From a virus (taxonomy: Duplodnaviria > Caudoviricetes): 64,000 bases of DNA. Positions 3,394-21,574 of the stretch are shown here, in pieces. The position numbers were made by a program, and so were the translations under genes. Below the pieces are notes generated by a model. That model was not told the origin of the DNA, ran no database searches, and worked only from the letters and a program-made list of their open reading frames with translations. Every line of letters begins with the position of its first letter. Within the stretch, counting starts at the first letter, position 1. Where the stretch lies: positions 128,001-192,000 of IMG/VR virus record IMGVR_UViG_3300037780_000034; one strand, given 5' to 3'.

Positions 3394-4224
3394 ATGAACT
3401 CATACCCTTATCTAATTCAAGGAACTAATATCGTTATTTTTATTAATAACGAAACCTACACTATTACAAAATCACATATCTCATATGAAAAAGTATTGGA
3501 ATCAATTCGTTCCAATGATTGGGAAACTGTAAAAAACATTGTTGATCCTAAAAAAGTAATCATCAATTATGGAAAAGGAAATGTTTCCATTCAAGGTGAA
3601 ACACTTTATTGGAAAGATAAAGAATTCCATAATTCATTAAGCTCACGAATGATTAAAATGTTTCAAGATGGTTTCTCTATTGAACCAATGATCAATTTTA
3701 TGGAAAATCTTATGGAAAATCCAAGTTATCGTGCAGTAAATGAACTATACGAATTCTTGGAAAAAAATAACCTTCCTATTACACCAGATGGTCATTTTCT
3801 TGCTTATAAAAAAGTAAAAAACGATTATATGGACGTTCATAGCAGAACTGTTCCAAATAAACTTGCAAAAATGTTTACTGATGAAGAAATTCAAAGTATG
3901 CCTATCGTTGGTGGACTTAATGGCGAAGTAACAGTAAAAATCAATTCTGACAATGTTACTGTTGTCAAAATGCCGCGAAATCAGGTTAACGATGATAAAA
4001 CTCAAACTTGCAGCGAAGGTCTTCATTTTTGTTCAAAAGAATATCTTTCAAGCTTTGGTGGTGAAAGGATTATGGTTCTTAAAATCAATCCACGAGATGT
4101 AGTATCAATTCCTGTTGACTACAATCGTAGTAAAGGTCGTTGCAATAGGTATCAAATCATTGCTGAACTTGGTGTCAAAGAAGAAGTGTTTGACGAAGTT
4201 GTGATGGAAAACGCTAACGTATAA
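3394..4224 (+). CDS. rIIB: rIIB-like protein
   Basis: LPITPDGHFLAYKKV, CSEGLHFC, INPRDVVSIPVDY. Confidence 0.9.
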   Translation: MNSYPYLIQGTNIVIFINNETYTITKSHISYEKVLESIRSNDWETVKNIVDPKKVIINYGKGNVSIQGETLYWKDKEFHNSLSSRMIKMFQDGFSIEPMINFMENLMENPSYRAVNELYEFLEKNNLPITPDGHFLAYKKVKNDYMDVHSRTVPNKLAKMFTDEEIQSMPIVGGLNGEVTVKINSDNVTVVKMPRNQVNDDKTQTCSEGLHFCSKEYLSSFGGERIMVLKINPRDVVSIPVDYNRSKGRCNRYQIIAELGVKEEVFDEVVMENANV

Positions 4225-5172: not shown

Positions 5173-5649
5173 ATGGATATAAGAACGTTAATTAATAAAA
5201 TAAATTCGTTTGATGAAGAAACTTCTTTAGTAGAAAGTGTATTAAAAGAATATAGCATAAATGATTTATTCACATTTGATAATTCTTATCTTAACGAAGA
5301 TTTAAACAATTTAAAACCATACCAAACCCAAAATTGGGATATAGATTATTCAAACGCATTTAAAAAAGGTGTTAAGAAATATAGAAATAATCCAAAAGTT
5401 TTAAAAGAATTAAAAGAATTAGAAAATTTTATTATTTCACACTCTGAAAAACCAGAAAAATCTACATTTCCACCACAGTATAATGTTCATATAATAAAAA
5501 CTGATCCAAAATTTTCAGGTGCATACGATGCTCATATATTAGGCAGTAAAATAATAACACTATTTTACATAGAAACTGATTCTGAAAAATTGAAACTACG
5601 TTGGATATATCTTGGAACACACGAAGGTGCAAAGAGCCATCTTGCTTGA
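5173..5649 (+). CDS. YafQ/RelE-family mRNA interferase-like protein with N-terminal extension
   Basis: IDYSNAFKKGVK, PPQYNVH, GAYDAHI and LGTH align by eye with YafQ motifs; TATAAATA upstream. Confidence 0.7.
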   Translation: MDIRTLINKINSFDEETSLVESVLKEYSINDLFTFDNSYLNEDLNNLKPYQTQNWDIDYSNAFKKGVKKYRNNPKVLKELKELENFIISHSEKPEKSTFPPQYNVHIIKTDPKFSGAYDAHILGSKIITLFYIETDSEKLKLRWIYLGTHEGAKSHLA

Positions 5650-7947: not shown

Positions 7948-7981
7948 AACCCTCTGAATAAAATCAGGGGGTTCTTTTTTT
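7948..7981 (+). terminator. intrinsic terminator
   Basis: AACCCTCTGA/TCAGGGGGTT stem plus T tract. Confidence 0.8.
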
Positions 7982-7997: not shown

Positions 7998-8026
7998 TTG
8001 ACAACGATAAGCGAATCACTTATAGT
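7998..8026 (+). promoter_or_regulatory. sigma70-type promoter of the RNA cluster (P1)
   Basis: TTGACA-17-TATAGT. Confidence 0.85.
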
Positions 8027-8084
8027 TAGTTCATCAAGAAACGGACAGCAGATAAAAAAATCTGCAAGATGTTGAAAAAAGGTG

Positions 8085-8113
8085 TTGACAACCATAACCG
8101 AATCAGTTATAGT
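8085..8113 (+). promoter_or_regulatory. sigma70-type promoter (P2), near-copy of P1
   Basis: TTGACA-17-TATAGT. Confidence 0.85.
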
Positions 8114-8811: not shown

Positions 8812-8933
8812 TGCATCGTAGCTCAGAGGTAGAGCAGGTGACTGTGGATGCTAAAGGTCATAGGGTCAGTTCGATTCTGACAGCATCAACCGTAATCACT
8901 TGGTCGCAGGTTCGATCCCTGCCGATGCAGCCA
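8812..8933 (+). tRNA. tRNA-Asn(GTT) interrupted by a 47-nt tRNA-like insert (8846-8892)
   Basis: TGCATCG/CGATGCA acceptor, G73, CCA, intact D and T arms; removing the insert gives loop CT-GTT-AA. Confidence 0.8.
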
Positions 8934-9014
8934 ATATTTTGTGTAATTTATTGATACAGTTACACAACTTAAAACCCAATCAAATGCGCAGTTTTGGGTC
9001 TGCGCGATATTTAA

Positions 9015-9106
9015 GGAACATTGGCTGAGTGGTCTAAAGCATCGGTTTGCTAAACCGACGAAGGCAAATATGTCTTCCATTGGTTCGAATCCAATATGTT
9101 CCGCCA
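9015..9106 (+). tRNA. tRNA-Ser(GCT)
   Basis: full cloverleaf, long variable arm, G73, CCA. Confidence 0.95.
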
Positions 9107-9125
9107 ATAACGAATATGAAGAATA

Positions 9126-9202
9126 CAGGGTATGGGATAGTCTGGTTAATCTAACGCCCTTGGACGGCGTTGACGGTGGTTCAAATCCACCTACCCTGAC
9201 CA
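9126..9202 (+). tRNA. tRNA-Pro(TGG)
   Basis: CAGGGTA/TACCCTG acceptor; loop CT-TGG-AC. Confidence 0.95.
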
Positions 9203-9344
9203 TAAATTTCAGAGGGTTAAAACAGCGGATTATGTATGTTTCGTAAAATGAAAACAAAAGTAGTTTAAAATGTAAAGTTTATCTGTAGATAAACCTCTTG
9301 CATTTTTCTACAGAAACCGAAAAAGTCCCTCACTTTAATAACTT

Positions 9345-9420
9345 GCGGGTATAACTCAGTTGGTAGAGTATCTGACTTCCAATCAGAATGTCGTCGGTTC
9401 GAATCCGATTGCCCGCTCCA
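9345..9420 (+). tRNA. tRNA-Gly(TCC)
   Basis: canonical cloverleaf, U73, CCA. Confidence 0.95.
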
Positions 9421-9516
9421 AAATATGTCGGTTCCATTCAGTTGGTTTATTGAAGAACGATACTTCAATTTAGTCTAGTCGTTTAGACAATCGGCTCCAT
9501 TTTTAAACTTTTTTTT

Positions 9517-9646
9517 AGGATCATTTCCGCAATATTTTACTTTGCATCAGAAGCACGTGTTTGCAGGTTCAAGTCCTGCCTCCCCAACCATAATAATTGA
9601 CGGGGAGTAGGCAAATGGTAAAGCCGCGTTAAGTAATATGATCCTG
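9517..9646 (+). ncRNA. cassette 1 carrying a circularly permuted tRNA (CAG, Leu-like)
   Basis: AGGATCAT-TTCCGCAA ... ATGATCCT-G; 3' half 9544-9590 precedes 5' half 9601-9629. Confidence 0.85.
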
Positions 9647-9827
9647 TTATATACTACAGGCTAACTTTTGGGGGTTAGCTTGGTGTTACAGAAGTATAGG
9701 AAATCATTCGGAACCAAATAATGCCTATACCATTTTACGGTTCCAGCAAAACACAGTTGACAACCGATAGAGAATCAGCTACATTACAGACACTGAAAAT
9801 GAAACCACTAACAAAAGGTGAAACACT

Positions 9828-10280
9828 ATGAAGGGCATTGAAGCCAAATATACTGCTAAAGTAATTGCAAAAATGATCAAACATAATCGTTCAATTGAAC
9901 GCAAACATCAGCGTAAAAGTGAACGTGATTTCTTTGATGATGAAAGCTATGTTATTGCAAACTTTACACATAAAGAAGGAAAGAAACTTTCTTCACAATT
10001 TCGTGCATTTATGATCCATAATGCTTTTAAGAAAAATCGTGGATTTACAAGTGCAGAAGTTGCTTATTTTAACCTTGGTGAAAATTCACTGTCTACTATC
10101 AAAGAGAATAAAGAACTATATTCACGATATATGGATAGGTTTAAACGCCAGCAAAAAGCAATTAACATTGTTCGTCATAAACTTCTTGATCATAATGAAC
10201 GTGAAAGTTTTGAAAACTGGCTTAACACAAATGCAATGAATGAAACTTACTTTGACGAAAATTTCCTTCAACCTGCATAA
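9828..10280 (+). CDS. hypothetical protein
   Basis: RBS AAGGTG; promoter just upstream. Confidence 0.7.
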   Translation: MKGIEAKYTAKVIAKMIKHNRSIERKHQRKSERDFFDDESYVIANFTHKEGKKLSSQFRAFMIHNAFKKNRGFTSAEVAYFNLGENSLSTIKENKELYSRYMDRFKRQQKAINIVRHKLLDHNERESFENWLNTNAMNETYFDENFLQPA

Positions 10281-10543
10281 TACTGGTTGACACTGTTGAA
10301 AATCATTGATATAGTGTCAACAACAACAAAACGCTCTTTGACAATTTAACCATCTTCCCTATGCGAAAGCTATGATGGGATAAAAACAGACTTATTGTGT
10401 AAGATGAAGAATCTGTAAATCGCAATTGGTTGTCTGTTTTGAATATGATAGCACCACTTCCGAGTAATCAGATAATAACTGATTATTTCGAGTTAATTAA
10501 TAGTTTGAGCAAACGGATGCTATCATATTCAAAACAGATATAA

Positions 10544-10617
10544 GGCTCTATTGCATTGTGGAATGCAGCGGCTTCTAACCCCGTTTCAAGCAGGTTCGAC
10601 TCCTGTTAGGGCCACCA
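10544..10617 (+). tRNA. probable amber suppressor tRNA (CTA); alternative reading is a distorted Arg(TCT)
   Basis: canonical spacing puts TT-CTA-AC in the loop; C31.C39 mismatch. Confidence 0.65.
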
Positions 10618-10727
10618 AATAAAACCAAATGGAGAGAAAAATGTTCTAGATTTATATACCACCATAACTTCTATTGATTTAAAGTTTAAAGAAAGACCTT
10701 TACTCAAATATCAATAGGAGAAACAAA

Positions 10728-11108
10728 ATGAGTATTCAATTAAAAATTAAAAATAAACATCTTAGTGAAGAAGCACGAATCATACGTTTTGAAGAAAACA
10801 AAATCAAAAAACACGCTCGTAACGTAAGAGAACGTCAAGGGCACCAAACTGCCGATGATATAATGAAAACTTTTCAGTCACTTAGACATCATCGCAGATG
10901 GGACGTTCGTAACGAAAATCGTGCTACTTTTATTGCCAGAGCCTTCATAGAAGGAAAATCATATAAACAAGTTGAAACCAAACGTAATCCAGAGAATGAA
11001 TATACATTTATAGCGTTTGTGTTGCCAAGAGTGTTGACAATGGTAAACAAGTATGGCAATGTCCAGATAACAAAAGAAGAATTACTCAAATGGTGTAATC
11101 AAGAATAA
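10728..11108 (+). CDS. hypothetical basic protein
   Basis: RBS AGGAG. Confidence 0.7.
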   Translation: MSIQLKIKNKHLSEEARIIRFEENKIKKHARNVRERQGHQTADDIMKTFQSLRHHRRWDVRNENRATFIARAFIEGKSYKQVETKRNPENEYTFIAFVLPRVLTMVNKYGNVQITKEELLKWCNQE

Positions 11109-11115
11109 CTAAAAC

Positions 11116-11192
11116 GGAAGCATAGCATAATTGGTTAATGCCCACGTCTCATAAACGTGTTTATCTTGGTTCAAGTCCAAGTGCTTCCACCA
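11116..11192 (+). tRNA. tRNA(CAT), Met or Ile2
   Basis: canonical cloverleaf. Confidence 0.9.
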
Positions 11193-11337
11193 ATATGTTG
11201 AAACTTAATTGTCAGTCTGACGTTTCAATATTAATTAATTAATGACTGGCCAAAGGCTTGATGTGTTAAAAACCTTGTGGTGATGTAATCAAGATAAACC
11301 ACATAAACTCCTTTGTATGAAATGAAATTTCCTCTTT

Positions 11338-11395
11338 AGGATGATTACCGCAAAATTAATAAACTTTTTTTTGGTAAAAGCAGAACATCATCCTG
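11338..11395 (+). ncRNA. cassette 2 with a short hairpin cargo
   Basis: AGGATGAT-TACCGCAA ... ATCATCCT-G. Confidence 0.8.
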
Positions 11396-11407
11396 ATTGT
11401 GTATTGT

Positions 11408-11487
11408 GGGCGAGTGGGCAAATTGGTAAAGTCGGTTCACTCAAAATGAGAGTCATTTTGTCGGTTCGAGTCCGACCTCGCCTACCA
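11408..11487 (+). tRNA. tRNA-Leu(CAA)
   Basis: loop CT-CAA-AA; 8-nt variable region. Confidence 0.9.
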
Positions 11488-11572
11488 ATTTTATCTTATG
11501 AGTTAAGATTTGTTTTAATCATTGAAGTCCCTCTACGGGCACCAACAACTATAAACACTAAAATAGAATAAT

Positions 11573-11647
11573 GCGGACATCGTATAAGGTTATTACGCTT
11601 GGCGACCAGCTAAGAAATACAGGTTAGAATCCTGTTGTCCTGCTCCA
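11573..11647 (+). tRNA. atypical tRNA-Gly (ACC)
   Basis: Gly-type G1-C72, C2-G71, U73; bulged acceptor; loop CG-ACC-AG; T loop TTAGAAT. Confidence 0.65.
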
Positions 11648-11655
11648 AATAACTG

Positions 11656-11684
11656 TTGACACTCACCAGAGAATCAACTATAGT
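11656..11684 (+). promoter_or_regulatory. sigma70-type promoter
   Basis: TTGACA-17-TATAGT. Confidence 0.8.
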
Positions 11685-11708
11685 AACAGTGTAAGAACTA
11701 ATACTTGT

Positions 11709-11785
11709 GGGCCTGTAGCATAATTGGTTAATGCCCAGTGCTCATAACACTGTCAATCGCGGTTCAAGTCCGTGCGGGCCTACCA
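11709..11785 (+). tRNA. tRNA(CAT), Ile2 or Met
   Basis: canonical cloverleaf. Confidence 0.9.
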
Positions 11786-11805
11786 GTATTAGTTTTTGAT
11801 TTTTT

Positions 11806-11864
11806 AGGATGACTTCCGCAAAATTATGCATTTGACCGTTAATCAAAAAAGCAAAATCATCCTG
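11806..11864 (+). ncRNA. cassette 3 carrying an isolated Asn-type anticodon arm
   Basis: AGGATGAC-TTCCGCAA ... TTTGA-CC-GTT-AA-TCAAA ... ATCATCCT-G. Confidence 0.8.
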
Positions 11865-11873
11865 TAATAGAAT

Positions 11874-11967
11874 GGGCGCGTGGCGAAATTGGTTGAAACG
11901 CAAGGCACTTAAAATGCCTCACAGATTAGTGATCACACTGTGGGTTCGAGTCCCACCGCGCCTACCA
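11874..11967 (+). tRNA. tRNA-Leu(TAA)
   Basis: loop CT-TAA-AA; long variable arm. Confidence 0.9.
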
Positions 11968-12026
11968 AAATGTAGTAAACACAAAGAAATTTACTTCTAC
12001 TCATAAATAAGTAGAAGGAGAATTAA

Positions 12027-12467
12027 ATGAGTGATTACTTCAAAAATTATATGAACTTAACAAAAGAAAACAGACAAAGACACTTAGATATATCTTCACC
12101 TTGTGAAGAACGTGGTGGGAATAGCACAATATATAGAGGAGTCCTTGCTCAATATTTAAACACTCCTATCCCGATGGGTAGGATAGCAGTTCTGGCTCAC
12201 GCATGTAACAATAATAAATGTTCTAATCCACAGCATTTATATTGGGCGACAGACAGAGAGAATATAGTAGAAGATGGAAAAAAGTTTGGAACTTTTAAGA
12301 GTGTTTGGGAACGAATGGTAGACAAGCACGGTTATGAAGAAGCTTGTAGGCTACAAGCCAACGGTGCCCAATCAAAGGCAGGACAAGGAAACAAAGGTAA
12401 ACGAAAGTCTGAAGAACATAAGCGCAAAATATCCGAATCTTTAAAAATAAAAAATAGAAAAGAATAA
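12027..12467 (+). CDS. His-Me-finger (HNH-type) homing endonuclease with NUMOD3-like tail
   Basis: HACNNNKCSNPQHL; KRKSEEHKRKISESLK. Confidence 0.8.
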   Translation: MSDYFKNYMNLTKENRQRHLDISSPCEERGGNSTIYRGVLAQYLNTPIPMGRIAVLAHACNNNKCSNPQHLYWATDRENIVEDGKKFGTFKSVWERMVDKHGYEEACRLQANGAQSKAGQGNKGKRKSEEHKRKISESLKIKNRKE

Positions 12468-12538
12468 ATCTTCTAATAATATAAATAATTATAGAAATTT
12501 GCAACCATTATACAACTACCAAAAAGGATTAAAATGTT

Positions 12539-12662
12539 AGGATCATTACCGCAATTTTATTTGCATTTCCAGCCGTAGATGCAGGTGCAATTCCTGCTCA
12601 CCCTACCAATATAAATTATGGGGTGATCGTCTAATAGTAGGACAACGTATAATATGATCCTG
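12539..12662 (+). ncRNA. cassette 4 carrying a circularly permuted tRNA (TTC, Glu-like)
   Basis: AGGATCAT-TACCGCAA ... ATGATCCT-G; 3' half 12563-12608, 5' half 12620-12647. Confidence 0.85.
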
Positions 12663-12697
12663 TTCTTTAAAAAAAAGAAAGTTAATTTAAGTTTTTT

Positions 12698-12816
12698 AGA
12701 TTATGTTCAGCAAACCATATAAATTATATGAAAGCCTATCAACGTTGCCGGAAGGCCCGTATGGCAAACCCAGTTTTCGATTTTCTGGTTCTATAAAAAA
12801 GTAGACACATAATCTG
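12698..12816 (+). ncRNA. cassette 5 with a multi-hairpin cargo
   Basis: AGATTATG-TTCAGCAA ... CATAATCT-G. Confidence 0.8.
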
Positions 12817-12823
12817 TAATAAT

Positions 12824-12900
12824 TGCGGGGTAGACTGGAGAGGTACCCAGCACGGTCTCATAAGCCGATCACGGCGGTTCGAATCCGCCCCCCGCAACCA
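12824..12900 (+). tRNA. initiator-like tRNA-fMet(CAT)
   Basis: TGCGGGG/CCCCGCA-A-CCA; loop CT-CAT-AA. Confidence 0.85.
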
Positions 12901-13164
12901 TTTTTATAAAATGATAATTCCCTTTATTTTTACGAGTTTCCTTTCCGAGTAAAAATATCAAGGTTGAGTTATCATTTTATAAAAATGAGGATATAAATTA
13001 TGGATAAAGAAATACAAGATTTTATAGATTTTTGGAAAGAAAAAGATGTAAAATTACCAAATCCACAAAATTATCCAAAATCTTTTGAATGGTATGTTAC
13101 AATGTGGAAATATCACACAAAATAATATTATAAATACCTATGTAAGTTAACATAGGAGATAATA

Positions 13165-13809
13165 ATGTCATTAATAAGAATTCAACAAATACTAAAAGAT
13201 ATGAACCACGATCCAGGTCCAATTGATGGATTATGGGGAAGCAGAACAAAAGCTGCATTAGAAAGTTTAATACAATGGGAAGGAAAACCAGTAACGGTTA
13301 CTTCCAATTCATCTGATGATGATTTACCTTGGATGATAGAAGGAAAAAAAGTATTTGGGTTTCACGAAGTTAGAAATAATAGTGAATTAAGAAAATGGTT
13401 AAGAAGTGATGGTGCTACTCTTGGTGATCCAAAAGCACTTCCCTGGTGTGGTGATTTTACCGAGACTGCTATAAAAAACTCATTACCAACTGAACCTTTT
13501 ACTGGTAGAATGCTTGAAAATCCATATTGGGCAAGAAATTGGCTTGAATTTGGTCGTGCATCGCCTGCTATATATGGATGCATAGGCGTTTTTAGTAGAG
13601 GCACAGGAGGTCACGTTGGTTTCTTGGTAGGTGAAGATGCAACAGACTATTATGTTTTTGGTGGAAATCAAAGCGATAGTGTTAATATAGTAAGAATAGA
13701 TAAAAAACGTTTACTGGGAACAAGATGGCCATTGACTTACAATATTGTTAATACACCATTACCTAAAAGAGACCCAAAAACTGTAATCAAATCAGTTAAT
13801 GAAATATAA
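13165..13809 (+). CDS. endolysin-like: peptidoglycan-binding domain plus CHAP/NlpC-type domain (TIGR02594-like)
   Basis: PGPIDGLWGSRTKAAL; PWCGDF; GHVGF; GGNQSDSV. Confidence 0.8.
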   Translation: MSLIRIQQILKDMNHDPGPIDGLWGSRTKAALESLIQWEGKPVTVTSNSSDDDLPWMIEGKKVFGFHEVRNNSELRKWLRSDGATLGDPKALPWCGDFTETAIKNSLPTEPFTGRMLENPYWARNWLEFGRASPAIYGCIGVFSRGTGGHVGFLVGEDATDYYVFGGNQSDSVNIVRIDKKRLLGTRWPLTYNIVNTPLPKRDPKTVIKSVNEI

Positions 13810-13818
13810 GGAAAAGTT

Positions 13819-14055
13819 ATGAAAATAGTATTTGCCCAAGGTGCATTTGATGATTTTGATGGAACACAAGAAGAACTTGATAACCTTCTTTCGGAATTAA
13901 AAGAAATGATTGAAAGTGGTTCACTTATGGAAAAAAGTGAACCAGTGGATTTAGACTTATTGCAAGAAGAAAATCCAGAAATATATGAAAAAATTATGAA
14001 GTTTGATAGTTTAGATCAAGATACGTTTGAAAATACTAAAAATAAACTCCATTAA
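13819..14055 (+). CDS. hypothetical acidic protein
   Basis: RBS AAGGA. Confidence 0.65.
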   Translation: MKIVFAQGAFDDFDGTQEELDNLLSELKEMIESGSLMEKSEPVDLDLLQEENPEIYEKIMKFDSLDQDTFENTKNKLH

Positions 14056-14059
14056 TTTT

Positions 14060-14138
14060 GGCCCCATCGTCTACGCTGGTGTTAGGATACTCGGCTTTCA
14101 TCCGAGAGAAGTCGGTTCAATTCCGTCTGGGGCTACCA
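14060..14138 (+). tRNA. tRNA-Glu(TTC)
   Basis: loop CT-TTC-AT; G1-U72, A73. Confidence 0.9.
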
Positions 14139-14145
14139 AAATAAT

Positions 14146-14231
14146 GTGTCGGTGGGTGAGCGGTTTAAACCACCTGACTGTAAATCAGGCGCTGAAAAGC
14201 AACGCTAGTTCGAATCTAGCCCGACACACCA
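14146..14231 (+). tRNA. tRNA-Tyr(GTA)
   Basis: class II cloverleaf. Confidence 0.95.
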
Positions 14232-14273
14232 AATATTATGAGTGCAAAGTTACAAGCACTCAAAACAAATCTT

Positions 14274-14350
14274 GTGCGTGTGTAGCTGAATGGTTAAGCG
14301 CAGGATTGCAAATCCTGATTATGTTGGTTCGAGTCCAATCACGCACTCCA
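14274..14350 (+). tRNA. tRNA-Cys(GCA)
   Basis: GTGCGTG/CACGCAC acceptor, U73; 4-nt instead of 2-nt linker after the acceptor stem. Confidence 0.85.
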
Positions 14351-14389
14351 ATATAGTCTACTCTAATAAATAATAAAAAAGGTAAAAAA

Positions 14390-14560
14390 ATGGAAATATC
14401 TGATAGGATTGAATCTTTAAAAGCAAAACATCGTGAACTTGATAGTAGGATTGAAGTTCTGTATGCTGAAAGAGTAGACGAAAAGTATATAACTTCTCTA
14501 AAAAAAGAAAAGTTAAAGATAAAAGAAGAAATTACTAAGTTACAAAATAGCTTAGTATAA
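14390..14560 (+). CDS. small coiled-coil protein, YdcH/DUF465-like
   Basis: LKAKHRELDSRI...LKKEKLKIKEEI (56 aa, below the ORF-track cutoff). Confidence 0.7.
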   Translation: MEISDRIESLKAKHRELDSRIEVLYAERVDEKYITSLKKEKLKIKEEITKLQNSLV

Positions 14561-14568
14561 AATAATTT

Positions 14569-14653
14569 AGGAATATTTCAGCAAATTTATCTTGGATAAA
14601 ACATTGTTCTCAAAAACAAAGTGAAGTGGTTCAAATCCACATCAATATTCCTG
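14569..14653 (+). ncRNA. cassette 6 enclosing D-, anticodon- and T-like arms without an acceptor end
   Basis: AGGAATAT-TTCAGCAA ... GTGG-TTCAAAT-CCAC ... ATATTCCT-G. Confidence 0.8.
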
Positions 14654-14663
14654 ACTAATATCT

Positions 14664-14774
14664 TGGAACATTACCGCAACTATAACATAAACAATGGGTT
14701 ACAGGTTCAAATCCTGTCTTTTACAGTTTGTAAAAGTAGTTCAATGGTAGAACAATTGTCAAAAAATGTTCCAG
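14664..14774 (+). ncRNA. cassette 7 carrying a permuted tRNA-like RNA with a closed acceptor stem and no CCA
   Basis: TGGAACAT-TACCGCAA ... T arm, CTTTTACA-GTT-TGTAAAAG, D arm ... ATGTTCCA-G. Confidence 0.85.
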
Positions 14775-14782
14775 TATTTTAT

Positions 14783-14856
14783 GGGGGATTAGTTCAATGG
14801 TAGAACAGGTGCTTTACGCGCATCATACAGCAGTTCGATTCTGTTATCCCCTACCA
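14783..14856 (+). tRNA. tRNA-Val(TAC)
   Basis: loop TT-TAC-GC; CCA. Confidence 0.9.
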
Positions 14857-14871
14857 ATATTAGGAAAAAAT

Positions 14872-15309
14872 ATGAATAATAAATGGGATTTAAGATTTTT
14901 AGAATTAGCAAAACATATTGCAGAATGGTCAAAAGACCCAAGCACAAAAGTTGGGTGTGTAATAGTAAGACCAGATAAAACTATTGCGTCTGTTGGTTAC
15001 AATGGATTTCCACGTGGTGTTAATGATGAACCAGAAAGATATAATAATCGTGAGATAAAATATCTTATGGTAAAACACGCAGAAGAGAATGCAGTATACA
15101 GTTCAAAAGAATCATTGACTGGATATACGGCGTATGTTACACACTATCCGTGTTCTAGTTGCACAGGAACACTAATACAAAATGGAATAAAAAGAATTGT
15201 AACACAAAAACCAGATGATAGTTTTGCTTCAAGGTTTCGTGATAGTTTTGAATCATCAAAAATAATGATTAATGAAACTGGTATAGAATTAGTTTTAATA
15301 GAAGATTAA
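14872..15309 (+). CDS. dCMP deaminase
   Basis: SKDPSTKVGC, HAEENA, PCSSC. Confidence 0.9.
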   Translation: MNNKWDLRFLELAKHIAEWSKDPSTKVGCVIVRPDKTIASVGYNGFPRGVNDEPERYNNREIKYLMVKHAEENAVYSSKESLTGYTAYVTHYPCSSCTGTLIQNGIKRIVTQKPDDSFASRFRDSFESSKIMINETGIELVLIED

Positions 15310-15311
15310 AT

Positions 15312-15396
15312 GGGCTAGTGTTGAAATAGGTAGACAATGCGCACTTAGAATGCGTTGCCGAAAGGCGTGGGGGTTCAAGTCCCTCCTAGCCTACCA
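15312..15396 (+). tRNA. tRNA-Leu(TAG)
   Basis: class II cloverleaf. Confidence 0.95.
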
Positions 15397-15414
15397 TTAT
15401 TGAAAGGATACAAA

Positions 15415-15588
15415 ATGAAAAACAAAATAAAAACACCTAAACCACGAAATGAATATGCAATTTCTGCAAGGTTTAGAACAGGTGCTGGTCCTATGCAAAA
15501 ATCTAAGAAAGCACAGAGACAACAAGATAAAATTGCTTTAAAGAAAAAAGGTAAAGACTACTTTAACAATAGAGAAACTATTCTTTAA
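15415..15588 (+). CDS. small basic hypothetical protein
   Basis: RBS AAGGA; KPRNEYA..GAGPM. Confidence 0.6.
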   Translation: MKNKIKTPKPRNEYAISARFRTGAGPMQKSKKAQRQQDKIALKKKGKDYFNNRETIL

Positions 15589-15735
15589 GTAGTCTTGTTT
15601 TATAATATATGAAAGGATATAATATGTTTACATTAATAGTAGGAATAGTAATTGGTGCTTTCATTGGTTGGAATTTTCCACAACCAGAGTTTGCTAGAAA
15701 TATTCAAAATAAGATAAAAAATATTCTAAAATAAT

Positions 15736-16509
15736 GCCACGGTAGCTCAGTCCGGTAGAGCATACAGGTTTGTAAAATAGTAAATATCTAAAAAGGATAT
15801 TTACTATGATTAGAAATAAAATAGAATGTAAAAAATGTGAAAGATTGATAAGTTTATCAAATCATAAAAGACATACACAATCCTGTAATGGCAAAAAAGT
15901 ATCTTCAAACAAAACTATTGAAGAAAATCATATTGATTGGAAAACAATACAAGAAGATTATGACAATGGATTAACATACCGTGGAATAACAGAAAAATAC
16001 AAAATATGTCAACAATCAATATCAAATGCGAGAAAAAAAGGTCTGTTAAAAACACGTTCTAAATCAGAAGCCTCTAAACTTTATTATAAAAATAATACAC
16101 CAAACATAATGAGCGATGAGGCCAGAAAAAGAATTTCTGAAAAAATGTCCGAACATAATCACGGCGGAAGAAGTAAATGGTTTGAGATAGATGGGAAGAA
16201 AGTCCAAGGAACTTGGGAGCTTAACTTTGCCAAATTTTGCAAAGAGAACAACATAGAATGGCAAAGATGCAAACCTTGGAAATATAAAATGGATAAAAAA
16301 ATAAGAAGCTATACACCAGACTTTTATATTCCAAGCAAAAAATTATTTATAGAAATAAAAGGTCATTGGTGGGGAGATGATAGAAGAAAAATGAACTGTG
16401 TAATAGAACAACATCCTGATAAAAACATTCTTATAATAGAAAAAGAGATATACGAACAGATGCTAGATGGAAAATTAGAATGGTGATTCGAATTCACATC
16501 GTGGCACCA
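15736..16509 (+). pseudogene. tRNA-Thr(TGT) split by an endonuclease gene (pieces 15736-15775 and 16482-16509)
   Basis: GCCACGG pairs with TCGTGGC-A-CCA about 700 nt downstream; positions 39-48 are missing. Confidence 0.75.
15806..16486 (+). CDS. PD-(D/E)XK-type putative homing endonuclease
   Basis: YTPDFYI...FIEIKG; N-terminal Zn finger and HTH-like segment. Confidence 0.75.
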   Translation: MIRNKIECKKCERLISLSNHKRHTQSCNGKKVSSNKTIEENHIDWKTIQEDYDNGLTYRGITEKYKICQQSISNARKKGLLKTRSKSEASKLYYKNNTPNIMSDEARKRISEKMSEHNHGGRSKWFEIDGKKVQGTWELNFAKFCKENNIEWQRCKPWKYKMDKKIRSYTPDFYIPSKKLFIEIKGHWWGDDRRKMNCVIEQHPDKNILIIEKEIYEQMLDGKLEW

Positions 16510-16615
16510 TAGTTTTATGATACACTGTCCGCAACAGGTCTTGATGGGGTAGCTTACGAGCAAGCCAAAGTGTAGGTGTAAGTCCTACCGCAGTGTATCA
16601 TAAAAATATAAATAT

Positions 16616-16692
16616 TGTTCTGTAGCACAATTGGTTTAGTGCAGGCGACTGATAATCGTCAGATTCAAGTTCAAATCTTGACAGAACAACCA
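16616..16692 (+). tRNA. tRNA-Ile(GAT)
   Basis: loop CT-GAT-AA. Confidence 0.9.
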
Positions 16693-16701
16693 ACAAATTT
16701 A

Positions 16702-16777
16702 TGGTAGAAGGGAAATTGGCGACCGACCGCACTTTGAATGCGTGTTATTGTAAGTTCGAATCTTACTCTACCAACCA
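16702..16777 (+). tRNA. tRNA-Gln(TTG)
   Basis: U1-A72; loop CT-TTG-AA; weak D arm. Confidence 0.8.
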
Positions 16778-16799
16778 ATATAAAGTAAAAATGAAATAC

Positions 16800-16884
16800 G
16801 GACAAGTGCCCGAGAGGACAAAGGGAACTGACTTTTAATCAGTCGCTATATGCTACGTGGGTTCGAATCCCACCTTGTTCACCA
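16800..16884 (+). tRNA. tRNA-Lys(TTT) with a class II body
   Basis: loop CT-TTT-AA; 13-nt variable region; 3-bp D stem. Confidence 0.85.
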
Positions 16885-16962
16885 AAATATGGTCGAATCA
16901 GATTGACATATACAGTCAACTATGCTATTGTATAGTATATTCAATGAAAGAAAGATATTACT

Positions 16963-17409
16963 ATGAAAATTGAATACCGTCAAGGCGATCTATTTAAAAC
17001 AGAGATTAAAACAATTGTTCACGGATGCAATGCGCAAGGTGTTATGGGGTCTGGGGTTGCGAATATAATTCGTGAACAATATCCAGAAGCATATGAGCGT
17101 TATCGTAATGAGTATGAAAAACATAATTATCTAAAGCTTGGTGATATCATATCAGTTCCTTGTAATTACAAGTTTATTGTAAACGCTATTACACAAGAGT
17201 ATTTTGGGCGTGACAATAAACGATATGTTAGCTATGATGCAGTAGATGACGTTATGGTAAAGTTAAATAAATTTTACGATATATACGGTATTTCAGAAAT
17301 TGCTATGCCAAAAATTGGTGCTGGTTTAGGAAATGGTTCTTGGGAAGTGATAGAAGCAATCATAGAGAATCGTCTTGACACCGTGAAACCAGTAGTGTAT
17401 ACTATGTGA
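16963..17409 (+). CDS. macro domain (ADP-ribose binding/hydrolase) protein
   Basis: GDLF, IVHGCNAQGVMGSGVA, MPKIGAGLGNG. Confidence 0.9.
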   Translation: MKIEYRQGDLFKTEIKTIVHGCNAQGVMGSGVANIIREQYPEAYERYRNEYEKHNYLKLGDIISVPCNYKFIVNAITQEYFGRDNKRYVSYDAVDDVMVKLNKFYDIYGISEIAMPKIGAGLGNGSWEVIEAIIENRLDTVKPVVYTM

Positions 17410-17420
17410 TATGAAATAAT

Positions 17421-17497
17421 CTCCACGTAGCTCAACTGGACAGAGCGAGTGACTTCTAATCACTAGGTTGAGGGTTCGATTCCTTCCGTGGAGGCCA
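17421..17497 (+). tRNA. tRNA-Arg(TCT)
   Basis: canonical cloverleaf. Confidence 0.95.
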
Positions 17498-17561
17498 TTT
17501 CTTATACTACCTTATACCCTACTAACAGGTATAAATACCTATGAACTAGGAGAATACTATA

Positions 17562-17957
17562 ATGAGCATTTCAAACCAAAAAGGTGATATAGGGGAAGCA
17601 CATTTTGTTTTAAGGGCTACTGAAAAGGGATATTGGACTGGAAAAATGCCACAAGACTGCCCTTATGATTTTGTATTGGATAGAGGAAAAGGATTAGAGC
17701 GTGTTCAGGTAAAATACAGGTCTAGTGCAAAAAAAGGTTCAATACAAATTAATTCCTTTAATTCAAGTCCGCAATCAAATAGAACATATAACGGTTTCGT
17801 TGATCAATTTGCAGTATATAACCCAGAAACATCAGAAGTATATCTTATTCCAGCTAATTTAGTAATGGAATCTGGTGCTTCTATTTTTAGAGTAGAATAT
17901 CCTAAAAATAATCAACTAAAAGGTGTAACTTTTCTTTCTGAATTCAAAGAATGGTAG
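17562..17957 (+). CDS. PD-(D/E)XK endonuclease (group I intron-associated type)
   Basis: KGDIGE, YDFVLD, RVQVKY. Confidence 0.8.
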   Translation: MSISNQKGDIGEAHFVLRATEKGYWTGKMPQDCPYDFVLDRGKGLERVQVKYRSSAKKGSIQINSFNSSPQSNRTYNGFVDQFAVYNPETSEVYLIPANLVMESGASIFRVEYPKNNQLKGVTFLSEFKEW

Positions 17958-18096
17958 TTCGAATCTTACTTGCAGCACCAATAAAAATATTGTATTGAAC
18001 CCCACTATTCATATGCTGAGTGTTTTAGACCTGACACTGTGAAGCGAATATGCGTTCAATACCTGCTAGGGGAATTGGTCCCTCCTAGTCAGTTTT

Positions 18097-18170
18097 GGCC
18101 CCTTGGTATATGGATATTACGCTCGGCTGTCTACCGGGAAAAACGGGTTTGAGTCCCGTAGGGGTCGCCA
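18097..18170 (+). tRNA. tRNA-Asp(GTC)
   Basis: loop CT-GTC-TA; G73. Confidence 0.9.
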
Positions 18171-18577
18171 ATATAGACTGTGACGTAATCGGCCCTTGTG
18201 AGGAACGCTCCCGTAACCAGTCGGGTTAAAGTTGCAAACAACCCAGTCTATAAAATAAAGTCCTATGTCCGACTTACCGATTTTGGTATTTTGGCTTAGG
18301 CACCAGTTTGATCTAGATACTTTTATTTTTGGAGCAAGAGTAGTCGTGTGTGATGATAAAAATGAAAGTCGTTTCAATGCTAGACAACATTCGGTTCAAG
18401 GACGTGCGAACCAGTATTATGACACCTGCACGTTGACCCTGAAACCAGTGTGCAGCATTATACGATGGGTAACAGTCTGGAGAGTGACAGACATATATGC
18501 GAAAAGGGTTTTTAGTAGTATGTGGTAATTCTTAAACCCTGAAATATCCATTAAGATCGTCGGTAGGCCACATATTT

Positions 18578-18652
18578 GGGGGATTGGTGAAATCAGGATC
18601 ACGTAGGTGTTGCATACCTAAATTATCGGGGCAGGTCCGATATCCTCCACCA
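18578..18652 (+). tRNA. tRNA-Ala(TGC) with a non-canonical T loop
   Basis: G3.U70, A73; loop GT-TGC-AT; T loop GGCAGGT. Confidence 0.8.
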
Positions 18653-18812
18653 TATAAATAAAGGATATGTTATGATTGGTTTAATATTTTTATCATTTAG
18701 TCCATTGTTTTTGATAGCATCAAATGACTATTTTGGTAAAATTTCTTCTATAATTTGTGCTGTTATTGGCATAACCATAATAACTATATCTCTGTTAATG
18801 TAAGGAATAAAA

Positions 18813-19142
18813 ATGTCATATGAAAAACCACTTCCTAAACCATTATATCCGCCAGTTGACCAAGGTTCACTAAAAGCTTTTGAATATTACAAAGAATTTA
18901 TAGAATATCTTGGAGCAAAGCCGGTAAATCATACTGAAATAGAAAATGGTGATACCACAAGTTTAGAACATTTGTTATGGATGTGTAATCATTGTATACC
19001 AAGAATTCGTGATGATGGATTAGGATTTAATGTTTCTAAGTATTCACGATGGTTAGGATACATACAAGGTTGTTTAATTTGTAAAGGTTACACAAGTGTA
19101 GCACAAGAAAGAGACAGAACAAGAAACTTTTTTAATGAATAA
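18813..19142 (+). CDS. hypothetical protein
   Basis: RBS AAGGA. Confidence 0.65.
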   Translation: MSYEKPLPKPLYPPVDQGSLKAFEYYKEFIEYLGAKPVNHTEIENGDTTSLEHLLWMCNHCIPRIRDDGLGFNVSKYSRWLGYIQGCLICKGYTSVAQERDRTRNFFNE

Positions 19143-19148
19143 TCTTTT

Positions 19149-19368
19149 TGGATCAGTTCAGCAAACAATATTTCCGTGAAAAGGACCGTGACGGTGGTGC
19201 AAATCCGCCCTTCCCCGCCACAGATACACTATGACAACATAGACGGGTTAATCGCCGTAGGAACGAAGCAGTTTCCAAACCAACGATAGGAAGAGTTTGT
19301 CGTCTTCTGTAGTGTATCTTTGACGGGGAAGTAGCTCAGTTAGTAGAGCAGGTAAAAAGTTGATCCAG
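19149..19368 (+). ncRNA. cassette 8 carrying a circularly permuted tRNA-Phe(GAA)
   Basis: TGGATCAG-TTCAGCAA ... TTGATCCA-G; 3' half 19174-19220, 5' half 19325-19353. Confidence 0.85.
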
Positions 19369-19656
19369 TTAATATAATAAAGAATCGTCTAGCCATCTTA
19401 TTACAGCGTGATCCAAAACAAGTTTAGCATCTTCAACTGATATATTAAACCATTCTCCACTTATTCTTTTGTAAGATATCTCACTATGTATTTTACTTTC
19501 CATAATTCTTGTTTTTTCATCTGGAATTTCAACATAATAATGAAGATAAAGTTTATCTGGATTTCCAGTTTGTAGGTTCTTTAGCCTACGATGTGGGTCT
19601 TTTGCAAACCCAATCTTTTGACGATTTTCATTGTTACCTATAATATAAATATACAT
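19369..19656 (-). CDS. small GIY-YIG nuclease (T5orf172-like)
   Basis: YIYII...KIGFAKDPHRRLKNLQTGNP...GEWF. Confidence 0.85.
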   Translation of the reverse strand: MYIYIIGNNENRQKIGFAKDPHRRLKNLQTGNPDKLYLHYYVEIPDEKTRIMESKIHSEISYKRISGEWFNISVEDAKLVLDHAVIRWLDDSLLY

Positions 19657-19858
19657 ATAACTATTTATGGAGATTAAAAAATGGACTCACCGTTTAAAAC
19701 ACAATTTGACTTACCGCGTGCTGGATTAATTAGACAAGAATTAATTACATATGAAGATCGTGGTGGGGTAATATTTAAAATCACTACTATAAGAAATTTT
19801 CATAACGGCGACTATATAGATTCACAAACTATTGTCCCTATCGTAGAAAAATAACATT

Positions 19859-19944
19859 GCTGAAGTCCCATAGCGGCGATTGGAAAGGTTTTGTAATCCT
19901 TCGGTTAACACCCATCGTGAGTTCGAGTCTCACCTTCAGCACCA
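19859..19944 (+). tRNA. tRNA-Thr(TGT) with a class II body
   Basis: AAGGT/TCCTT stem, loop TT-TGT-AA; 15-nt variable region. Confidence 0.8.
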
Positions 19945-19967
19945 ATATACAATACAAAAATTATTTT

Positions 19968-20044
19968 CCCGACTTAGTGTTTAGCGGTTAGCACGGATGA
20001 TTGTGGATCATCAAGGCCAGATTCGAATTCTGGGGTCGGGACCA
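19968..20044 (+). tRNA. tRNA-His(GTG) lacking G-1, with A73
   Basis: CCCGACT/GGTCGGG-A-CCA, preceded by T. Confidence 0.9.
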
Positions 20045-20052
20045 AATATTAC

Positions 20053-20144
20053 GGAAGTATGGCAGAGTCTGGTTTATTGCATCTGCTTTGAACGCAGAAG
20101 AACGTGAAAGCGTTCCGTGGGTTCGAATCCTACTGCTTCCGCCA
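20053..20144 (+). tRNA. tRNA-Ser(TGA)
   Basis: class II cloverleaf. Confidence 0.95.
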
Positions 20145-20152
20145 AAATTTAT

Positions 20153-20241
20153 AGGGGTGCGCCAACGTTGGAGTGTTGGGCTGGTCTCCAAAACCAGTGT
20201 TTGAAAAAACTTAGTGAGTTCGAATCTCATCACCTTTGCCA
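20153..20241 (+). tRNA. tRNA-Trp(CCA) with a long variable arm
   Basis: loop CT-CCA-AA; G73; 16-nt variable region. Confidence 0.85.
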
Positions 20242-20261
20242 ATATAAAACTCAGGAAAATT

Positions 20262-20486
20262 ATGAAACAAAGATTACCATATGCAACAAGAAATCTTAAA
20301 AACTTTATAACCGCAGTATATCCACTTCTATTAGATGATAGATATATTGATATGACTGAAAGTCAATTTGTTAGTGAAGTTATGAAAAATAGTGGAGGAT
20401 CACTAAATCCAAAAACTATAATCTCAGTATATAATTCACTTATGAGTGATGCAGGGTTGGAGCCATTATATGAAAATCATAAATAA
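20262..20486 (+). CDS. hypothetical protein
   Basis: RBS AGGA. Confidence 0.55.
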   Translation: MKQRLPYATRNLKNFITAVYPLLLDDRYIDMTESQFVSEVMKNSGGSLNPKTIISVYNSLMSDAGLEPLYENHK

Positions 20487-20587
20487 TAAAAGATGGAAAA
20501 TACAATCTAAACAACAATTTGGCAATAAGATAACTTATATAATCAAATGTGTAGAATTTCCATCTGATATAAGAAGGATTTCTATTA

Positions 20588-20845
20588 ATGGATGGGAAAA
20601 ATACCCAGATGCCGACAGTTGACCAATTAGCAGAAATTGCTATGGAAAGTGAAATTACTGATCCAATAGATTGGGGAATGTTAGTTGTATCTGAAAAACA
20701 CGCATACAAAATGATGGCTTCATATGTGTTGGAAATGGCAGAAACACAAAAAAATAACAAACATTTTGATACTATATTGATGGCAACTATAACCAAGTTG
20801 CTTGTTGAAAATTTTGTATTAAATTTAAAAGTTAATAATAAATAA
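20588..20845 (+). CDS. hypothetical phage protein
   Basis: IDWGML motif recalled from jumbo phages. Confidence 0.65.
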   Translation: MDGKNTQMPTVDQLAEIAMESEITDPIDWGMLVVSEKHAYKMMASYVLEMAETQKNNKHFDTILMATITKLLVENFVLNLKVNNK

Positions 20846-20864
20846 TCTCTAAGGAGATTATAAT

Positions 20865-21143
20865 ATGAAATTAAAAGATTTTGCTATAATAAAAACCAGT
20901 TTTTCAGATGCAGATTTTTGGTTAGTCAGGCGTGGAAGTATTGATATGGTTGGAAAACCTGTTAAAAATTATGATCCAGAATACATCGGTGTTAAAGTAA
21001 CTAGTGATAAAATACTTCCAAATTTTTTATTTTATTGGTTTATGAATTTTCATAATACAGGATATTGGAAAACTGTTGCAACTGGAGCAACAAACCTTGT
21101 TAATATAAAAACAGAAGATGTTAAAAATATACCAGTAGGATAA
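20865..21143 (+). CDS. small protein resembling a type I R-M specificity (TRD) fragment
   Basis: ILPNFLFYWF...ATGATNLVNIKTEDVKNIPV. Confidence 0.5.
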   Translation: MKLKDFAIIKTSFSDADFWLVRRGSIDMVGKPVKNYDPEYIGVKVTSDKILPNFLFYWFMNFHNTGYWKTVATGATNLVNIKTEDVKNIPVG

Positions 21144-21148
21144 TTATA

Positions 21149-21574
21149 ATGAAAGAGTTAGATTTACTATATGATAGTGTAAGAATAAAATTAGGTCAAA
21201 AACAGAGAGACCCAGATTTAGATGATTTTATGGAAGAATACTATGAAATTACAAGTCCTCATCCTTTTGATAATGTAACACGTATTTTGGGTAATACTGC
21301 TGTTCATATTTCTCCTACAAGTGATAATGAAATTCATATTCACGATATACTGTCTTTGCTACCAAGAAGTGGTGCAGGAACAGATGCAATGAAAGAATTA
21401 ATTAACTTAAGTGATAAGTATGGAATTCCTCTTTCTGGGTTTGCAAAAGCATATCATAAAGATAAAAAATTTATAACTGATACTGATAAATTGTTAAACT
21501 GGTATAAAAAACTAGGATTTACTGTTGTAAACAAACACGAAGATGGTTATGAAATAAGGTATAGCAAATATTAA
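21149..21574 (+). CDS. GNAT-fold protein
   Basis: PRSGAGTDAMKEL; LLNWYKKLGF. Confidence 0.7.
   Translation: MKELDLLYDSVRIKLGQKQRDPDLDDFMEEYYEITSPHPFDNVTRILGNTAVHISPTSDNEIHIHDILSLLPRSGAGTDAMKELINLSDKYGIPLSGFAKAYHKDKKFITDTDKLLNWYKKLGFTVVNKHEDGYEIRYSKY

Follow-up and report, generated by a model that had tools for sequence, protein, structure and literature searches.

A 64,000-nucleotide (nt) stretch of phage DNA, referred to below as the window (G000:C1:128001-192000), carries a tRNA-Asn(GUU) gene that is interrupted inside its anticodon by a 47-nt insert. The parent IMG/VR phage record (IMGVR_UViG_3300037780_000034) comes from pond metagenomes. It has a length of 317,722 base pairs (bp) and a G+C content of ~30%, and is 85% complete as judged by CheckV. 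The parts of the split gene and of the insert are as follows.

8812-8933, plus strand: split tRNA-Asn(GUU) gene, with the 47-nt insert between anticodon nucleotides 35 and 36
8812-8845, plus strand: 5' exon, nucleotides 1-35, with acceptor strand TGCATCG, D arm, anticodon stem strand GGTGA, and loop bases C32, U33, G34 and U35
8846-8892, plus strand: insert (putative mini-intron), 47 nt, matching covariance model R1 with 52.7 bits (E = 4.7e-9)
8846, plus strand: first base of the insert, G, facing A8888 in a conserved G·A or A·A mismatch; it would be the +1 nucleotide for RNase P
8847-8852, plus strand: 5' strand of the acceptor-like stem, GATGCT, 6 bp, pairing with 8882-8887; all six pairs change on both sides across the family
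8853-8864, plus strand: joining segment, 12 nt, with the conserved AAAGGT at 8853-8858
8865-8881, plus strand: T-arm mimic from a T-arm scan, with stem GTCAG/CTGAC and loop TTCGATT (8870-8876); four of the five stem pairs covary
8882-8887, plus strand: AGCATC, which completes the acceptor-like stem as its 3' strand and follows the T stem without a gap, as in a tRNA
8888-8892, plus strand: tail AACCG, 5 nt, reading AAAAG in the consensus of the family; its final G pairs with C32
8893-8933, plus strand: 3' exon, with U36, A37 and A38, anticodon stem strand TCACT, variable loop, T arm, acceptor strand CGATGCA, G73 and an encoded CCA

Borders and fold of the insert

The Rfam tRNA model (RF00005) spans positions 8812-8930 from end to end, with a score of 54.5 bits compared to a gathering threshold of 29, and its alignment loops about 50 nt out of the anticodon loop. 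Excision of 8846-8892 produces a canonical 75-nt tRNA-Asn(gtt) in ARAGORN, with U1-A72, G73 and the encoded CCA. Alternative 47-nt registers yield anticodons for Thr(CGU), Thr(GGU), Asn(GUU) or His(GUG), and the intron mode of ARAGORN picked Thr(cgt). The top full-length matches of either exon in the cultured-phage collection are annotated tRNA-Asn genes. In the intact tRNA-Asn gene of Rhizobium phage B1VFA, the two exons align contiguously, to 44397-44425 and then to 44426-44466. Because the exons abut there, the insert is exactly 8846-8892, located between U35 and U36.

A preliminary description of this DNA had placed the borders where removal of the insert restores CT-GTT-AA, and the contiguous alignment to intact tRNA-Asn genes upholds this placement. 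It had also stated that other registers read Thr or His. This ambiguity is real, and is settled for Asn by homology. The U1-A72/G73 identity that it assigned is likewise borne out. The split tRNA-Asn has the Asn identity set G34, U35, U36 and G73, together with the bacterial-type U1-A72 pair. U1-A72 is invariant in all nine aligned members of the family described below, and G73 in seven of seven, as two of the nine aligned rows are trimmed before position 73. In a strain variant, represented by a DNA contig of another study (X3; 1028 nt, depth 5.3), the changes C8814>A and G8927>T convert the C3-G70 pair into A3-U70, and the insert is unchanged.

Folded in isolation, the insert reaches -13.4 kcal/mol (z = -2.5), with the hairpin of the UUCGAUU loop enclosed by a 6-bp stem. 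The letters given for it earlier (GGATGCT, 12 nt, GTCAG-TTCGATT-CTGAC, AGCATC and AACCG) are correct. Two details of the earlier reading need to be revised. The acceptor stem has 6 bp (8847-8852 with 8882-8887) and a G8846·A8888 mismatch, rather than 7 bp. The CCA-like end is not a feature of the family, as CCG is peculiar to this copy and both the closest relative (contig L053) and the consensus have AAAAG. The conserved feature of the tail is its length, not its letters. The 3' junction lies 16 nt past the T-like loop in eight of ten members, which equals the spacing of T loop and A76 in tRNAs, and the 5' junction is one mismatched base ahead of the stem. Since both junction distances fit, the excised piece matches the dimensions of the top half of a mature tRNA. 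The AAAGGT segment, retained as such or as a variant (AGGT, AGAT or TGGT) in the aligned family members, may mimic G18-G19 of the D loop and complete the elbow.

The GAUGC/GCAUC stem of the insert has the same letters as the acceptor stem of the tRNA itself, with the strands swapped (8812-8818/8923-8929 compared to 8847-8851/8883-8887), which makes alternative pairings possible in the precursor. This match is probably a coincidence, as L053 has the same insert stem without it.

A family of inserts in the anticodons of phage tRNAs

At least 10 lineages of huge phages have homologous inserts at 35/36 of tRNA-Asn. When a tRNA-Asn pattern was allowed a gap of 28-58 nt at this position, it located inserts in huge-phage contigs of 208-490 kb (L014, L005, L013, L003, L002/L010 and L004), and in the shorter contigs L015 and L011. 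Patterns for the insert only, applied to viral and metagenome contigs and filtered by covariance model R1, brought in L048, the L053 group and L136 as three further members. The L053 insert is the closest relative, with 43 of 47 positions identical. Most of the 63 metagenome matches to the insert-only patterns and several of the viral ones (for example L047 and L140) are due to chance, as they fail R1 and lack a tRNA context. The 28-30-nt inserts in tRNA-Asn genes of GVMAG giant viruses are A-rich and unrelated. The cultured-phage collection has no near-identical relatives, no viral contig matches the 3' exon exactly, and the neighboring 738-residue open reading frame (ORF), used as a probe, led to no relatives.

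The members are 35-51 nt long and follow one plan. After a first base (G or A) come a stem of 5-6 bp and AAAGGU or one of its variants, then the UUCGAUU loop on a stem of 4-5 bp, the abutting 3' strand of the first stem, and the 5-nt tail, usually AAAAG. Compensatory changes are found in 10 of the 11 pairs of the insert among eight homologous inserts. In these inserts 88% of the cells are paired, compared to 24-46% with slid partners, and none of 500 shuffles reached as high a value. Among nine whole pre-tRNAs, pairing extends to 96% of the cells, and covariation to 22 of 32 pairs, including six of the seven acceptor pairs. RNAalifold independently gives the cloverleaf with the nested two-helix insert. 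It also adds a C32-G pair with the last base of the insert and a U33-A pair, leaving U36, A37 and A38 as a 3-nt bulge. The spliced forms are called tRNA-Asn(gtt) in all ten members examined. The insert and the outer tRNA are both under selection. The insert is not better conserved than its host tRNA, as the pairwise identities are similar (72-89% and 77-88%).

The presence of the insert varies among close relatives. The tRNA-Asn gene of L006, a 75-kb viral contig, is intron-less, and its exons are identical to those of insert-bearing L053 at 39 of 39 and 43 of 46 positions. Its junction is clean (ACTGT|TAATC), without duplication. L006 had come up as an insert carrier through a false match to tandem tRNAs, and proved to be the intron-less allele. 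In L048 the 'TCCCAAG' tRNA-Asn is interrupted by the insert, whereas in L053 it is intron-less. The anticodon stem beside the insert in L048 carries the sequence of the insert-bearing gene of L053, which suggests co-conversion of exon sequence together with the insert. Because near-identical tRNA-Asn genes occur with and without it, the sequences indicate that the insert is a mobile element. Two other tRNAs also carry it.

L029:1185-1310 (G001): tRNA-Lys(UUU) with a 49-nt insert at 35/36 (1221-1269; R1 E = 0.013)
L136:3638-3766: tRNA-Met(CAU) with a 51-nt insert at 35/36 (3674-3724; R1 E = 2e-4)

The sequence UAAUC follows the insert in the tRNA-Asn, tRNA-Lys and tRNA-Met hosts alike.

Such differences between orthologous genes are also expected of a selfish DNA insertion that has inactivated the tRNA gene and is tolerated as the host or paralogous genes supply tRNA-Asn. 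The tRNA array that begins with the split gene is rich in ORFs of homing-endonuclease type (HNH, T5orf172/GIY-YIG-like, PD-(D/E)XK and endo I-like), and L053 and L015 have intron-less paralogues. However, compensatory changes preserve every stem of the exons across at least 10 diverged lineages, a fresh compensatory pair is found in the within-species variant, and the insert itself is under structural selection. We consider an inactivated gene improbable.

No intron-less tRNA-Asn was detected by pattern in the five near-complete phage records G000-G004, or by ARAGORN in the 317-kb record, and the split gene is the only tRNA-Asn found in the five. Asn makes up 7.4% of the codons in the ORFs of at least 150 residues of the 317-kb record and is its fourth most used amino acid, with AAT at 56 per 1000.

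Proposed removal of the insert and joining of the exons

In the textbook view, the tRNA introns of bacteria and phages are self-splicing group I ribozymes, and protein-catalyzed tRNA splicing belongs to archaea and eukaryotes (PMC4090602). The insert has 47 nt, compared to ~200 nt or more for a group I core. The group I model RF00028 has no match at the gathering threshold or at E<=1, either around the gene or across the 317-kb record. Moreover, no Rfam intron, ribozyme (group I, group II or small) or RNase P RNA was found anywhere in this record. RNA catalysis would have to come from a very small, unrecognized self-splicing element, or from a trans-acting ribozyme with the insert as its target. 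The ends of the insert have some likeness to group I splice sites. U35 precedes it in the Asn and Lys hosts, and a terminal G is found here and is conserved in the core family. However, the tRNA-Met host has A35 before the insert, the divergent members L002, L011 and L004 lack the final G, and the 47 nt hold just two helices. RNA catalysis is the least probable of the explanations that we considered, with only a slight chance of being correct. Because 47 nt are far too few for self-splicing, proteins probably remove the insert, and neither bacteria nor their viruses are known to use such a route.

The BHB (bulge-helix-bulge) motif of protein-spliced introns consists of two 3-nt bulges separated by 4 bp, with a splice site in each (Yoshihisa 2014, PMC4090602). 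The consensus fold of the split tRNA-Asn has one 3-nt bulge (U36, A37 and A38) with mismatches opposite, and its junctions are located at helix ends rather than within bulges. The absence of BHB and group I features, noted in the preliminary description, is thereby confirmed by the consensus fold and by the Rfam searches.

The splicing endonuclease EndA (PF01974) and the ligase RtcB (PF01139) were each found in none of five insert-bearing phage records, and Tpt1 gave sub-threshold matches only. In comparison, a ligase of the Rnl1 family (T4 Rnl1 type) is present in all seven near-complete insert-bearing records and in none of 14 control cellular genomes. An Rnl2-like ligase scores above the cut-off in four of the five records searched, and a P-loop kinase is present in five of five, adjoining Rnl1 in two. 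In the 317-kb record, the Rnl2-like ligase gene is located at G000:C1:36658-37752 and the kinase gene around G000:C1:108324. The rejoining by an RNA ligase that was proposed earlier is supported to the extent that the phage encodes suitable ligase genes. In the 317-kb record, the Rnl1-type gene is itself interrupted.

G000:C1:83092-84232 (L026:1324-2464): split Rnl1-type ligase gene, interrupted at about residue 207-220 of intact homologues

The Rnl1 gene is interrupted at the same place in three phages (also in L027 and L134). The interruption here is a frame change of 25 nt; G001 has ~460 nt and G005 ~640 nt at this place. From its sequence, this interruption could be a split gene or the site of a mobile insertion.

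A T7 endonuclease I-like ORF (15806-16486) was considered as the splicing enzyme and rejected. It is the only shared neighbor, being present in two of five phages and multicopy in one, and is more likely a homing-type nuclease. No RNA data set is listed as containing the phage. Reads from one RNA run with a small share (X5) and from DNA runs are mostly from intact tRNA-Asn genes of other organisms. A joint that skips 47 nt (X2; depth 2.7, six mismatches in 41 nt) was examined as a spliced product and belongs to a foreign intron-less tRNA-Asn gene.

Three further tRNA genes in the window have their halves in permuted order.

9517-9646: circularly permuted tRNA gene, 3' half before 5' half, break at 29/30
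12539-12662: circularly permuted tRNA gene, 3' half before 5' half, break at 29/30
19149-19368: circularly permuted tRNA gene, 3' half before 5' half, break at 29/30

The joined halves are called tRNA-Leu-like(cag), tRNA-Glu(ttc) and tRNA-Phe(gaa) by ARAGORN, and have a tRNA fold only after joining. Because these genes require joined halves, the phage needs RNA joining in any case. Each of the three is enclosed by a stem, GGATCA(T)...(A)TGATCC, that carries a CMGCAA motif. This arrangement occurs three times in the window, compared to an expectation of 0.02. The scaffold, GGATCA-NN-TCAGCAA ... GATGATCC, also occurs without tRNA cargo at L053:2003-2052 and L048:7436-7485, and both of these contigs are insert carriers as well. 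Because of these cargo-free copies, the scaffold is taken to be an independent conserved RNA element of the phage group.

We propose that the insert is a mobile mini-intron that depends on proteins, which would most likely take it out of the precursor before a phage ligase seals the exons. We judge the chances of this proposal to be roughly balanced. The insert would present the fold of a tRNA top half, with its 6-bp acceptor-like stem stacked on the 5-bp T stem, the UUCGAUU loop and a GG-containing strand. Protein endonucleases would cut it out in two cuts. Host RNase P would be the best candidate for the 5' cut (8845|8846), and a second nuclease would make the 3' cut (8892|8893). The cloverleaf would hold the tRNA halves, and the Rnl1-type ligase of the phage would seal the anticodon loop, joining ...GGUGACUGU to UAAUCACU... 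The three permuted tRNAs of the array would also mature through this joining activity. From the earlier view of the insert as an excised intron, this proposal keeps an intron-like insert under selection, its borders, the Asn identity, the lack of a ribozyme or BHB, and the ligases; the CCA-like end has been dropped.

The insert has the geometry of an RNase P minihelix substrate, with 6 bp, 5 bp and one G·A mismatch, the UUCGAUU loop and a 4-nt tail. The 5' junction has U at -1 and G at +1, at the end of a coaxial helix of 11 bp plus a mismatch below the T loop. A cut by RNase P fits an ATP-dependent ligase, since it would leave the 3'-hydroxyl that this ligase needs. Excision by RNase P at 8845|8846 and a second nuclease, followed by sealing by Rnl1, is plausible.

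The same geometry would suit a processing cassette, in which RNase P and 3' trimming free the 47-nt minihelix, and perhaps the halves too, and the exons are not rejoined. The excised piece has the size of a mature minihelix: it begins with a +1 G, its stems are stacked, and position 72 is followed by a tail of 4 nt. Release of tRNA-like elements by RNase P is established elsewhere, for example for the mascRNA of MALAT1. However, if the insert alone mattered, there would be no need for the acceptor, anticodon and T stems of the outer tRNA to covary as strongly as they do. In addition, the near-identical tRNA-Asn genes without the insert show it to be an add-on to a working gene. We consider such a cassette improbable.

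Several observations weigh against the mini-intron. The 3' junction is 3 nt past the site for bacterial RNase Z, and a cut after the discriminator would leave AAG or CCG on the exon. Exonucleolytic 3' trimming would destroy the exon. The five phage records contain no candidate nuclease, with EndA, RNase III and the metallo-beta-lactamase fold of RNase Z each found in none of them. The Rnl1 gene of the 317-kb phage is split into two ORFs, and its activity is therefore not assured. Rnl1 and the kinase also form a common tRNA-repair module of phages, and the ligase count covers insert-bearing huge phages and cellular controls. Most members of the family came from the pattern that requires the halves of the anticodon loop, and the insert-only searches gave just L048, L053 and L136. 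The intron-less Asn paralogues of L053 and L015 indicate that the split copy is not always indispensable. Finally, the spliced 75-nt tRNA and the free intron are deduced from DNA sequence.

The 122-nt RNA could instead never be spliced, and act with its two elbows as a decoy or partner of tRNA-recognizing host enzymes or defense nucleases rather than as a decoder. No machinery for the 3' cut was found in the five phage records, the anticodon stem and the T-like hairpin are connected by a long irregular rod that is conserved, and the same phage has other odd tRNA-like RNAs. However, the seven loop bases CU-GU|U-AA are intact even in members from the insert-only searches, and the Asn identity set (U1-A72, G73 and GUU) is retained in the members examined. 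Moreover, five phages with otherwise broad tRNA sets yielded no tRNA gene for Asn besides the split one. An unspliced RNA is unlikely, but deserves somewhat more weight than either the cassette or the inactivated gene.

The mini-intron can be extended to a complete scheme of protein-only tRNA splicing in bacterial viruses. A mobile intron disguised as a tRNA would be released by the end-processing nucleases of the host and the exons rejoined by Rnl1, with the same ligase assembling the permuted tRNAs. We offer this scheme tentatively, and with clearly less confidence than the mini-intron itself.

Parts of this proposal have counterparts in known systems. RNase P and RNase Z cut at tRNA-like signals, as in the tRNA punctuation of mitochondrial transcripts and in the mascRNA of MALAT1, and bacterial RNase P accepts minihelices. 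The cut sites of these signals, and the putative ones of the insert, are marked by a minihelix of acceptor and T arm that ends in a single-stranded 3' tail. In contrast, the insert is nested in another tRNA, its flanks would then need ligation, and its 3' border overshoots the RNase Z site by 3 nt. For phage T4, the PrrC anticodon nuclease breaks tRNA-Lys at 33/34, and Pnkp and Rnl1 mend the break. A phage Rnl1-family ligase and a kinase would similarly seal a break in the anticodon loop here. The damage in T4 is inflicted by the host, whereas two programmed cuts would drop 47 nt from a phage precursor in the present case.

Group I introns are located in the anticodon loops of bacterial and phage tRNAs, such as cyanobacterial tRNA-Leu(UAA) and tRNA-fMet, which Reinhold-Hurek and Shub are said to have described in 1992. 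These introns share with the insert the location in the anticodon loop, mobility, variable presence and nearby homing-endonuclease genes. In addition, flanking exon sequence travels with the insert in L048, as homing predicts. The insert differs in having no P3-P9 core or RF00028 match, and is about 5-fold too small.

Archaeal and eukaryal tRNA introns (cut by EndA/TSEN and sealed by RtcB or Trl1) are also too small to self-splice, and a ligase must join their exons. As in these introns, a rod extends the anticodon stem, bases 32-33 pair with the 3' end of the intron, and a 3-nt bulge is located beside the stem. In comparison, the junctions of the insert are offset by 2 nt from the BHB cleavage positions, the ligase is of the ATP-dependent Rnl1 type, and the five phages have no EndA or RtcB. 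No protein-spliced tRNA intron is recorded for eubacteria (PMC4090602).

The closest precedent is in the Lak megaphages (Devoto et al. 2019, Nat Microbiol, PMC6784885, Fig. 4, Table S6), whose tRNAs carry 'enigmatic' introns, including one that 'may encode a tRNA'. These are likewise short, ribozyme-less inserts in the anticodon loops of huge-phage tRNAs, with Rfam matches only to 'tRNA' and with alleles that have or lack the intron. The 3' ends of the Lak Tyr, Phe, Thr and Gly introns (PMC6784885, Table S6) form an acceptor-like stem and a T arm with a GGTTCGAAT-type loop. The two groups were compared by shape, and they differ in several respects. The Lak introns have 79-114 nt with an extra 5' hairpin and a linker, follow the anticodon (36/37 or 37/38 as read from Table S6), and end 1-2 nt past the stem, which fits an RNase Z-type cut. 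In contrast, the insert studied here has 47 nt and splits the anticodon itself (35/36); its 5' end is directly at the stem, and a 5-nt tail forms its 3' end. The phages of the present family are from freshwater and have ~30% G+C content, whereas the Lak phages infect gut Prevotella. The Lak introns and the 35/36 family may thus use the tRNA-like module differently. A literature search found no paper on the mechanism of the enigmatic phage tRNA introns.

The 'enigmatic' class was already known from the Lak megaphages (Devoto 2019, PMC6784885). New here are the family specific to 35/36 with its covariance model, the alleles with and without the insert, the sole-copy status in five phages, the correction of the CCA-like end, and the co-occurrence with permuted tRNA genes. 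An insert too small to self-splice in the sole Asn tRNA gene of several huge phages implies either a third, so far undescribed splicing route among bacteria or a new class of tRNA-shaped functional RNA. If the complete scheme is correct, a native job of phage RNA ligase 1 would be the splicing and assembly of phage tRNAs, beyond repair, giving the Rnl1 ligases of phages a possible primary function. With exact borders, a covariance model, alleles with and without the insert, and a candidate ligase at hand, a 122-nt transcript is enough to address the question experimentally.

The tRNA array and its surroundings

The split tRNA-Asn is the first tRNA of a plus-strand array (8812-22476) that contains 22 tRNAs according to ARAGORN and 24 according to Rfam. 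The following features were located upstream of the array and within it.

7948-7973: terminator-like hairpin, just upstream of the two promoter-like sites
7998-8026, plus strand: sigma-70-like promoter, TTGACA-17-TATAGT, 11 of 12 consensus matches
8085-8113, plus strand: sigma-70-like promoter, TTGACA-17-TATAGT, 11 of 12 consensus matches
12027-12467: ORF of homing-endonuclease type
14797-15309: dCMP deaminase
15806-16486: ORF of homing-endonuclease type
16963-17409: macro-domain protein
17562-17957: ORF of homing-endonuclease type
19369-19656, minus strand: ORF of homing-endonuclease type
21608-22390, minus strand: ORF of homing-endonuclease type

The two promoters come from a consensus scan in which promoter-like matches are overall no more numerous than in shuffles, and they are treated as a lead only. 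They are the likely start of the array transcript (7998-8113), and the split tRNA-Asn gene is probably transcribed together with the array. The homing-endonuclease-type ORFs, which are HNH, T7 endo I-like, PD-(D/E)XK and T5orf172/GIY-YIG-like, are scattered through it. A YafQ-toxin-like ORF is located upstream of the array (5173-5649), with a sub-threshold match of 25 bits compared to a cut-off of 30.

The array also carries Thr(UGU) and His(GUG) tRNA genes. ARAGORN overlooked tRNA-Gln(UUG) at 16702-16777 and tRNA-Trp(CCA) at ~20154-20232. The variable regions of this tRNA-Trp, tRNA-Lys(UUU) (16800-16884) and tRNA-Thr(UGU) (19859-19944) have 12-16 nt, unusually long for class I. An amber-suppressor tRNA (anticodon CTA) is located at 10544-10617, and the ORFs in the first 24 kb of the window fit the standard code well.

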